From Escherichia coli (GTDB lineage Bacteria; Pseudomonadota; Gammaproteobacteria; Enterobacterales; Enterobacteriaceae): a stretch of 363 bases of DNA. A program made the position numbers and the translations under genes. The notes below the pieces were generated by a model that saw only the letters and a list, made by a program, of their open reading frames with translations, was not told the DNA's origin and searched no databases. Where the stretch lies: the NCBI RefSeq assembly GCF_003334385.1, contig NZ_QOWN01000190.1; one strand, given 5' to 3'. Shown here piece after piece: positions 1 to 363 of this stretch (position 1 is the stretch's first letter; every line of letters starts with the position of its first letter).

Positions 1-363
1 CTGCCTGATGGTGTGGAGACATACGGGGTGTGGGGACTCTCCCTGCCGTCACTGCGCCGTCGCCTGTTCCGCTGTGTGGCCATCCGGGAAAACACGGACG
101 GCACCTTTGCCATCACGGCGGTGCAGCACGTACCGGAAAAAGAAGCCATCGTGGATAACGGTGCCCGCTTTGAGCCGCAGTCAGGCTCCCTGAACAGCGT
201 CATCCCACCGGCAGTGCAGCACCTGACGGTGGAGGTGAGCGCAGCTGACAGCCAGTATCTGGCGCTGGCGAAATGGGACACGCCGAGGGTGGTGAAGGGC
301 GTGCGCTTCAGTCTGCGCCTGACCAGTGGAAGCGGTGAGAACAGCCGCCTGCTGACCACCGCC
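1..363 (+). CDS. J: Internal fragment (both ends outside the window) of a lambdoid-phage host specificity protein J homologue (tail tip attachment protein), central region upstream of the C-terminal receptor-binding part
   Basis: Seen in sequence: frame +1 is open across all 121 codons; third-position GC is about 77% against about 64% overall; CTG, GTG, CGC and GCC codons dominate, as in enterobacterial coding sequence. Recognition from memory: the translation aligns colinearly with the lambda J segment I recall as ...PDGVAEYSVWELKLPTLRQRLFRCVSIRENDDGTYAITAVQHVPEKEAIVDNGAHFDG...PPAVQHLTAEV...WDTPKVVKGVSFLLRLT..., including an identical block AITAVQHVPEKEAIVDNGA. Not verified by any search. 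Confidence 0.87.
   Translation, partial: MPDGVETYGVWGLSLPSLRRRLFRCVAIRENTDGTFAITAVQHVPEKEAIVDNGARFEPQSGSLNSVIPPAVQHLTVEVSAADSQYLALAKWDTPRVVKGVRFSLRLTSGSGENSRLLTTA
1..363. mobile_element. Part of a lambdoid phage or prophage tail-gene module; only context is implied, and no element boundary lies in the window
   Basis: Inference from the J-like CDS: J homologues occur in the late structural operon of lambdoid phages and prophages. No att site, integrase or element end is visible, so phage genome versus integrated prophage cannot be distinguished. Confidence 0.7.

Follow-up and report, generated by a model that had tools for sequence, protein, structure and literature searches.

The window analyzed here, a stretch of 363 nt given 5' to 3' on its plus strand, is a single open frame (frame 1, 121 codons) and is 100% identical to positions 41856–42218 of Escherichia phage PhiR12_2 (PV340550.1), which lie within the coding sequence of the tail tip host-specificity protein J. 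Nucleotides 1–363 correspond to codons 549–669 of the 954 in the match, and with the first codon of the window being J residue 549, the two AVQH tetrapeptides examined below fall at J residues 588–591 and 619–622. In PV340550.1, J is encoded downstream of H, M, L, K, and I, the order of a lambdoid tail module. Full-length J was matched by phmmer to lambda gpJ (PDB 8iyk), with residues 1–834 aligned to 1–836 of 8iyk_J (E = 0, 1502 bits), and five Pfam families, FNIII-A_GpJ, Phage-tail_3, Ig_J (residues 609–712), Ig_J_second, and Phage_Tail_Tip, were all found in the protein with E values of 4e-40 to 6e-18. This full-length similarity and domain architecture place the protein in the TipJ/lambda gpJ family, the hallmark of which, as known for lambda, is a trimer that forms the tail tip and central fiber and binds an outer-membrane receptor (PMC10721106, PMC11101478). 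The window alone also matches Ig_J (PF24421, E = 1.3e-18), its residues 61–120 being aligned to model positions 1–60. The original prediction had assigned the window to J, an assignment borne out by the identity to PhiR12_2 and the phmmer match to lambda gpJ, and had stated that lambda J carries both AVQH motifs, which were indeed found there at residues 588–591 and 620–623.

Lambda gpJ, for which structures are available (PDB 8IYK, 8K35, 8XCG, 8XCI, and 9E7M), belongs to the same family and has the same domain order and both AVQH copies, with the window segment about 68% identical at the protein level. The motifs are spaced 32 codons apart in lambda versus 31 here, the lambda DNA copies share 8 nt (GCC GTG CAG CAT versus GCG GTG CAG CAC), and lambda J has 1132 aa compared with the 954 aa annotated in the best-matching PhiR12_2 record. 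The PhiR12_2 protein is annotated at 954 aa, yet its gene looks frameshifted downstream of the window, near L001:6191–6200 (PV340550.1). In a 1132-aa J homologue, the final 250 residues match L001:6087–6200 in one frame and L001:6191–6556 in another, and the second-frame match enters a separately annotated "tail fiber protein" ORF (6395–6886). Possible causes of this apparent frameshift are an error in sequencing, a genuinely split gene, and programmed frameshifting.

Two exact copies of the 9-mer GTGCAGCAC were located at nt 121–129 and 214–222, and no third was present in the window. Both are in frame 1, where each copy encodes AVQH (window codons 40–43 and 71–74) at a copy-to-copy spacing of 93 nt, or 31 codons, in the translated contexts ITAVQHVPEKE and PPAVQHLTVEV. 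Extended to 12 nt, copy 1 (GCGGTGCAGCAC; GCG GTG CAG CAC, nt 118–129, J 588–591) and copy 2 (GCAGTGCAGCAC; GCA GTG CAG CAC, nt 211–222, J 619–622) differ by a single synonymous change in the Ala codon, and a repeat search lengthened the pair to 21 nt at 81% identity (nt 116–136 versus 209–229). All that had been noted of the 9-mer, the 12-mer, the frame, the codons, and the AVQH contexts was correct in every detail when checked against the sequence.

The repeat is real, but it is no more than expected at chance level. When the window was shuffled, an exact direct repeat of at least 9 nt turned up in 28% of mononucleotide and 42% of codon shuffles, and a repeated tetrapeptide was seen in 10% of protein shuffles. 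Full-length J contains 5 repeated tetrapeptides versus 6.2 ± 2.6 in shuffles, and lambda J contains 8 versus 8.5 ± 3.2. Two other imperfect direct repeats can be seen in the window, GGTGTGGAGAC/GGTGTGGGGAC at nt 10–20 and 27–37 (17 nt apart) and GGTGAGCGCAGCTGACAGC/GGTGAGAACAGCCGCCTGC at nt 234–252 and 334–352 (100 nt apart); each is a short family with two members, a kind often due to chance.

Structural setting of the AVQH copies

An AlphaFold2 model of J 442–808 was built from a 25-sequence alignment (mean pLDDT 85), and a single-sequence AlphaFold2 prediction of the same region was discarded (pLDDT 37). Lambda gpJ structures 8iyk, 8xcg, and 8xci match this model, its hub part being superposed on the open state of lambda (8xcg) at 2.8 Å over 161 columns and its FN3 part on lambda 8xci at 3.9 Å. 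In lambda gpJ, hub domain IV contains a β-sandwich/OB insert at residues 483–569, followed by strand β25 at 570–578 (PMC10721106). The model places the strand equivalent to lambda β25 at J 569–578 (model residues 128–137, nt 61–90), directly after the β-sandwich/OB insert, and the last β-strand of hub domain IV at J 584–590 (model residues 143–149, nt 106–126, pLDDT about 80), with copy 1 at the C-terminal end of that strand. A short linker α-helix is predicted next, at J 593–601 (PEKEAIVDN, model residues 152–160, nt 133–159), and is followed by a long flexible linker loop at about J 601–620 (nt 160–216), in which pLDDT falls below 50 at model residues 160–172.

The connection between hub and FNIII domains in lambda has likewise been described as a long loop plus a short α-helix, and this linker disengages and repositions upon LamB binding while the FNIII cone opens (PMC10721106, PMC11101478). 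The hub chains of the open-state structure 8xcg comprise 594–598 residues, fitting a hub model that ends just past copy 1, within the linker. The first FNIII/Ig-like domain (Ig_J, PF24421, J 609–712) starts within the window and runs past its end (nt 181–363). Copy 2 is modeled at the N-terminal edge of strand A of FNIII-1, for which the predicted strand spans J 621–630 (model residues 180–189); by offset, copy 2 (window residues 71–74) falls at about Ig_J model positions 11–14. An FN3/Ig fold at copy 2 is indicated by the Ig_J profile, by sequence matches to monobody/FN3 domains, by Foldseek matches to FN3 tandems, and by the AlphaFold2 strand. As modeled, one AVQH copy finishes a fold and the other begins a different fold, with a flexible linker enclosed between them. 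The length of this linker is polymorphic, with a motif spacing of 31 codons in 53 and 32 codons in 59 of 112 IMG/VR loci; FEPQSGSLNS and FDGEQSGTVNG are examples of the loop variants.

Conservation of the two copies across the TipJ family

Homologues of J were sought among 1.84 billion representatives, yielding 455 relatives. In an alternative search, the matches were largely short, incomplete pieces of J from E. coli, and distant homologues were taken from the representatives. Forty representatives with <50% identity covered both positions. At copy 1, A was found in 35 of these 40, Q in 33, and H in 39, and the tetrapeptide lies within a family-wide signature, A-[VLI]-Q-H-x-P-x-K, that is retained down to 30% identity. 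Within the 25-sequence alignment, H591 (column H150) is nearly invariant and K595 (K154) is invariant; the text of the lambda structure paper PMC11101478 makes no mention of H591, K595, or Q590. At copy 2, the same 40 distant sequences read [PKQA]-[VI]-[ESQ]-[HN], with AVQH in 0 of 40 and two identical tetrapeptides in 0 of 40, although the common distant form PPVEHL resembles the PPAVQHL of the lambda-like clade. More remote members of the TipJ family, the phage T1 tail tip protein (9l9p) among them, share the hub-linker-FN3 arrangement and keep A-L-Q-H but read PVEH, KVSN, and so on at the copy 2 position, so that no tetrapeptide is repeated. The F2-pyocin tail fiber (PDB 25vf) has the same architecture, with ALQH followed by a helix at copy 1 and PPQN at the copy 2 position, and the phage T5 baseplate hub protein pb3 is also counted among the closest known systems.

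Sequences reading AVQH at copy 2 were found solely in the lambda-like clade (≥55% identity). Across the 76 members of this clade at 55–90% identity, AVQH was present at copy 1 in 72, at copy 2 in 71, and as an identical pair in 68. The exceptions vary independently, with AIQH, AVLH, and AVRH occurring at copy 2 and ALQH at copy 1. Yersinia phage P400 has AVQH at copy 1 versus GIEK at copy 2, and two IMG/VR loci (L072 and L123) read AVQY at copy 2. By these alignments, copy 1 is a true family signature and copy 2 a lineage-specific spelling of the start of an FN3 strand. The suggestion that the repeat is a conserved structural motif thus holds for copy 1, at which H was kept in 39 of 40 distant sequences and K595 is invariant, but fails for the pair, for which none of the 40 had identical copies; the J-family alignment proposed as a check showed copy 1 to be conserved and copy 2 to be variable outside the lambda-like clade. 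In TipJ-family proteins, A-[VLI]-Q-H-x-P-x-K signals where hub domain IV ends, so it can serve as a useful landmark when domain boundaries are annotated.

Within the lambda-like clade, both copies stay while their neighbors vary (VIPP/VTPP and LTVE/LTAE), which makes a clade-specific functional reason for the AVQH of copy 2 conceivable, and such a reason may exist. A stronger form of this idea is that the copies are a functionally coupled pair in lambda-like phages, in which AVQH at both ends of the linker is co-selected as edge strands or latch elements that, for example, dock to the same surface or swap upon tip opening. The copies do sit at both anchor points of a linker that moves upon LamB binding, and both are kept across the lambda-like clade (55–98% identity) while the flanks vary. 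This clade is shallow, however, making retention weak evidence, and a protein as large as J is expected to contain a repeated tetrapeptide by chance. The copies also vary independently where they differ (AVQH/AIQH, ALQH/AVQH, AVQH/AVLH, and AVQH/AVRH), and the identity is missing in all 40 of the 40 distant homologues with the same architecture, including the F2 pyocin; a coupled pair is consequently considered unlikely. More speculative still is the proposal that the AVQH segments are interchangeable edge strands that act as a latch or undergo strand exchange upon tip opening, with copy 2 mimicking the docking signature Q-H-x-P-x-K of copy 1, which is regarded as very improbable. In a weaker variant, the microhomology could repeatedly give rise to J alleles that lack the linker and are triggered differently.

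It had also been suggested that the repeat might derive from an ancient internal duplication, in which a single repeated unit gave rise both to the stretch that ends in copy 1 and to the one that starts with copy 2. An in-frame 12-nt repeat with one synonymous difference, reaching 21 nt at 81% identity, is what such a duplication could leave behind, but no extended similarity was found when the protein was aligned to itself. Outside the four residues, the ungapped BLOSUM62 score of the flanks at offset 31 is -29; a Smith–Waterman comparison of J 549–606 with 607–712 gave p = 0.25; and self-blastp gave no off-diagonal match at E = 1000. Comparison of the hub domain IV end with FNIII-1 by hhalign gave a probability of 0.5%, and the motifs were not paired, whereas the positive control, FNIII-1 versus FNIII-2, was detected (E = 7.7e-4, 71 columns). 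Copy 1 closes a hub-domain strand and copy 2 opens an FN3 strand in the model, so that the copies occupy non-equivalent positions in different folds. A duplication further predicts greater similarity between copies in older lineages, the opposite of what was observed. Similarity of the flanks, equivalence of fold position, and conservation of both copies, the three features by which an internal repeat is recognized, were all absent. There is no internal duplication at this site; the duplication reading is effectively refuted, and its likelihood is put close to nil. A weak resemblance was also noted between the end of the β-sandwich/OB insert (J 519–557, TVNLINGSGKP...LPDGVETYGV(W)) and the C-terminal half of FNIII-1 (J 651–690, SLRLTSGSGEN...LPLGEYTLTV), which are partly contained in the window (nt 1–27 and 307–363); a relationship between them was considered and rejected as not significant (Smith–Waterman p = 0.14, hhalign probability 0.1%).

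Drift of the nucleotide repeat and a natural deletion allele

Across the 112 J loci from IMG/VR that carry both motifs, copy 1 is spelled in 7 ways at the DNA level and copy 2 in 8. Counted in register, the stretch shared exactly by the two copies is between 5 and 14 nt long, and in 47 of the 112 it is 5–8 nt. Of individual phages, PhiR5_1 shares 6 nt and Stx2a_WGPS6 a perfect 12-mer. As the synonymous positions drift, selection acts on the peptide and not on the DNA repeat. The pair nevertheless has what is required of a substrate for microhomology deletion, generally at least about 8 nt on the same strand and within a few hundred nt, with 9 nt shared exactly and 11 of 12 nt overall.

Such a deletion was found in the J of E. 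coli OkiPb01713 (NZ_AP042682.1; WP_134892663.1, 1132 aa), which contains one AVQH copy and no linker. Its junction is ...FAITAVQH|LTVEV..., the protein reading FAITAVQHLTVEV at this point and the sequence across the deletion being ...DGTFAITAVQHLTVEVSAAD..., and the equivalent of the lost segment in the window is nt 130–222, one repeat copy plus the whole linker (93 nt here and 96 nt in the parent allele). The parent is represented by a sister allele in strain 2013C-4974 (L140, NZ_CP027587.1 1749317–1757687), in which the IS66-family element ISEc8 is inserted between I and J, with L, K, and I retained, and which shares the ISEc8–J junction with the deletion lineage. Between the sister and deletion alleles there are 0 substitutions and a 96-nt gap (gene nt 1765–1860) located between GCGGTGCAGCAC and GCAGTGCAGCAC; the second difference is a 1-nt indel that frameshifts J in 2013C-4974. 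One repeat copy is kept and the interval is lost in a gene otherwise identical to its parent save for this indel, and the allele pair thus shows the textbook pattern left when DNA between two short direct repeats is deleted. The end points suggest a slipped-strand or microhomology mechanism as opposed to other illegitimate recombination.

In the two loci with flanking sequence, the OkiPb01713 chromosome and CP027597.1 (another carrier of the deletion protein), J lies directly behind ISEc8. Upstream of ISEc8 in CP027597.1 are chromosomal genes and not tail genes, leaving only J-lom-stf-tfa-NleG, which identifies the locus as a prophage remnant. The deletion protein was present on 24 contigs inspected and is indexed in 36 blocks of the collection. 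Of 8 loci fetched, 7 are identical to OkiPb01713 in the DNA of the gene, and the eighth differs by 1 nt, so the allele looks like the product of a single event that has been inherited clonally. When complete E. coli genomes were searched with a 100-nt and then a 42-nt probe, the junction was matched in 1 of 5426. Probes of 100 nt spanning a junction proved ambiguous, as two wild-type halves are joined into one place, and probes of 42 and 39 nt, whose wild-type halves are below the 28-nt megablast word size, were used instead. A 39-nt probe for the junction of the reciprocal duplication had no match in the 5426 E. coli genomes, and a degenerate 33-nt pattern for the deletion junction had no match in IMG/VR, in which the wild-type control pattern was found on at least 120 contigs. 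With one allele in 1 of 5426 complete genomes and on no IMG/VR contig, the site does not show the recurrence of a hot spot, and the single deletion event found says little about the deletion rate. Linker-less J is probably non-functional, the linker presumably being required; its detection solely in an IS-truncated remnant is consistent with, but does not prove, a need for the linker in tail function. The near-isogenic prophage alleles with and without the linker provide a clean natural example of deletion at a 9-nt direct repeat.

The deletion allele also bears on whether the direct repeat might be a selected DNA element, kept as a recombination or regulatory site that permits, for example, a programmed switch to linker-less J. 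One natural allele does carry an exact inter-repeat deletion, and it is in frame. The synonymous sites of both copies drift, however, and the run in lambda is just 8 nt. The deletion was seen in 1 of 5426 complete genomes compared with 5776 places matching a 100-nt probe from the flanking J sequence, its junction pattern is absent from IMG/VR, and no reciprocal duplication was found. Moreover, the sole carrier is an IS-truncated remnant without upstream tail genes, and the sister allele is frameshifted. A selected element is accordingly held to be extremely improbable. The original prediction that the repeat is not a recombination site stands insofar as synonymous drift argues against a selected site, but it needs amending in that the repeat supplied the deletion end points in one allele.

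Origin of the repeat and comparison with known systems

Taken together, the AVQH copies are very probably unrelated pieces of a lambda-type tail-tip protein J that coincide in the lambda-like clade only. Copy 1 closes the last β-strand of hub domain IV, with its signature leading into the linker helix, and copy 2 opens strand A of FNIII-1 as the clade version of a variable strand start, P-x-[VI]-x-[HN]-L. Between them lies a linker of about 27 residues, composed of a short helix and a disordered loop, which in the published lambda structures tethers the FNIII cone to the hub. The nucleotide repeat is a passive by-product of the peptide identity, arising because both copies use the same few codons, and has no selected role at the DNA level. 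Like any direct repeat of 9–14 nt with copies about 95 nt apart, it is a substrate for slippage or microhomology deletion, and at least one such event appears to have taken place: in a prophage that an IS66 insertion had already inactivated, exactly the linker was removed in frame. The sole visible consequence of the repeat is that one decaying E. coli prophage lost the DNA between the copies. J, its domains, and its linker are already known, and solved structures cover exactly the hub–FNIII junction. The repeat is an ordinary feature of one of the best-studied phage proteins and matters little, and the low interest assigned to it in the original prediction was appropriate.

Replication slippage or microhomology can delete the DNA between short direct repeats, the classical examples being the lacI deletion hot spots of E. 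coli. The J deletion is of this type, with two direct repeats of 9–12 nt about 95 nt apart, of which exactly one copy is kept while the interval is lost. Unlike the lacI hot spots, the J deletion is a single natural event in a defective prophage.

Other altered J genes were noted among the IMG/VR loci. In IMGVR_UViG_2713896789_000019 (L096:6644–6760), the linker helix, ...VPEKEAIVD, is joined straight to ...IENTPDGMQSQ..., a sequence that in the wild-type J gene of L140 lies about 965 nt beyond this point. This J fragment, in an ORF of 328 aa, is without both FNIII domains and the helical shaft and is probably a decayed or mosaic copy. In three further loci (L025, L036, and L105), J is frameshifted in or just past the linker, with stops or nonsense after AVQHVPEK....
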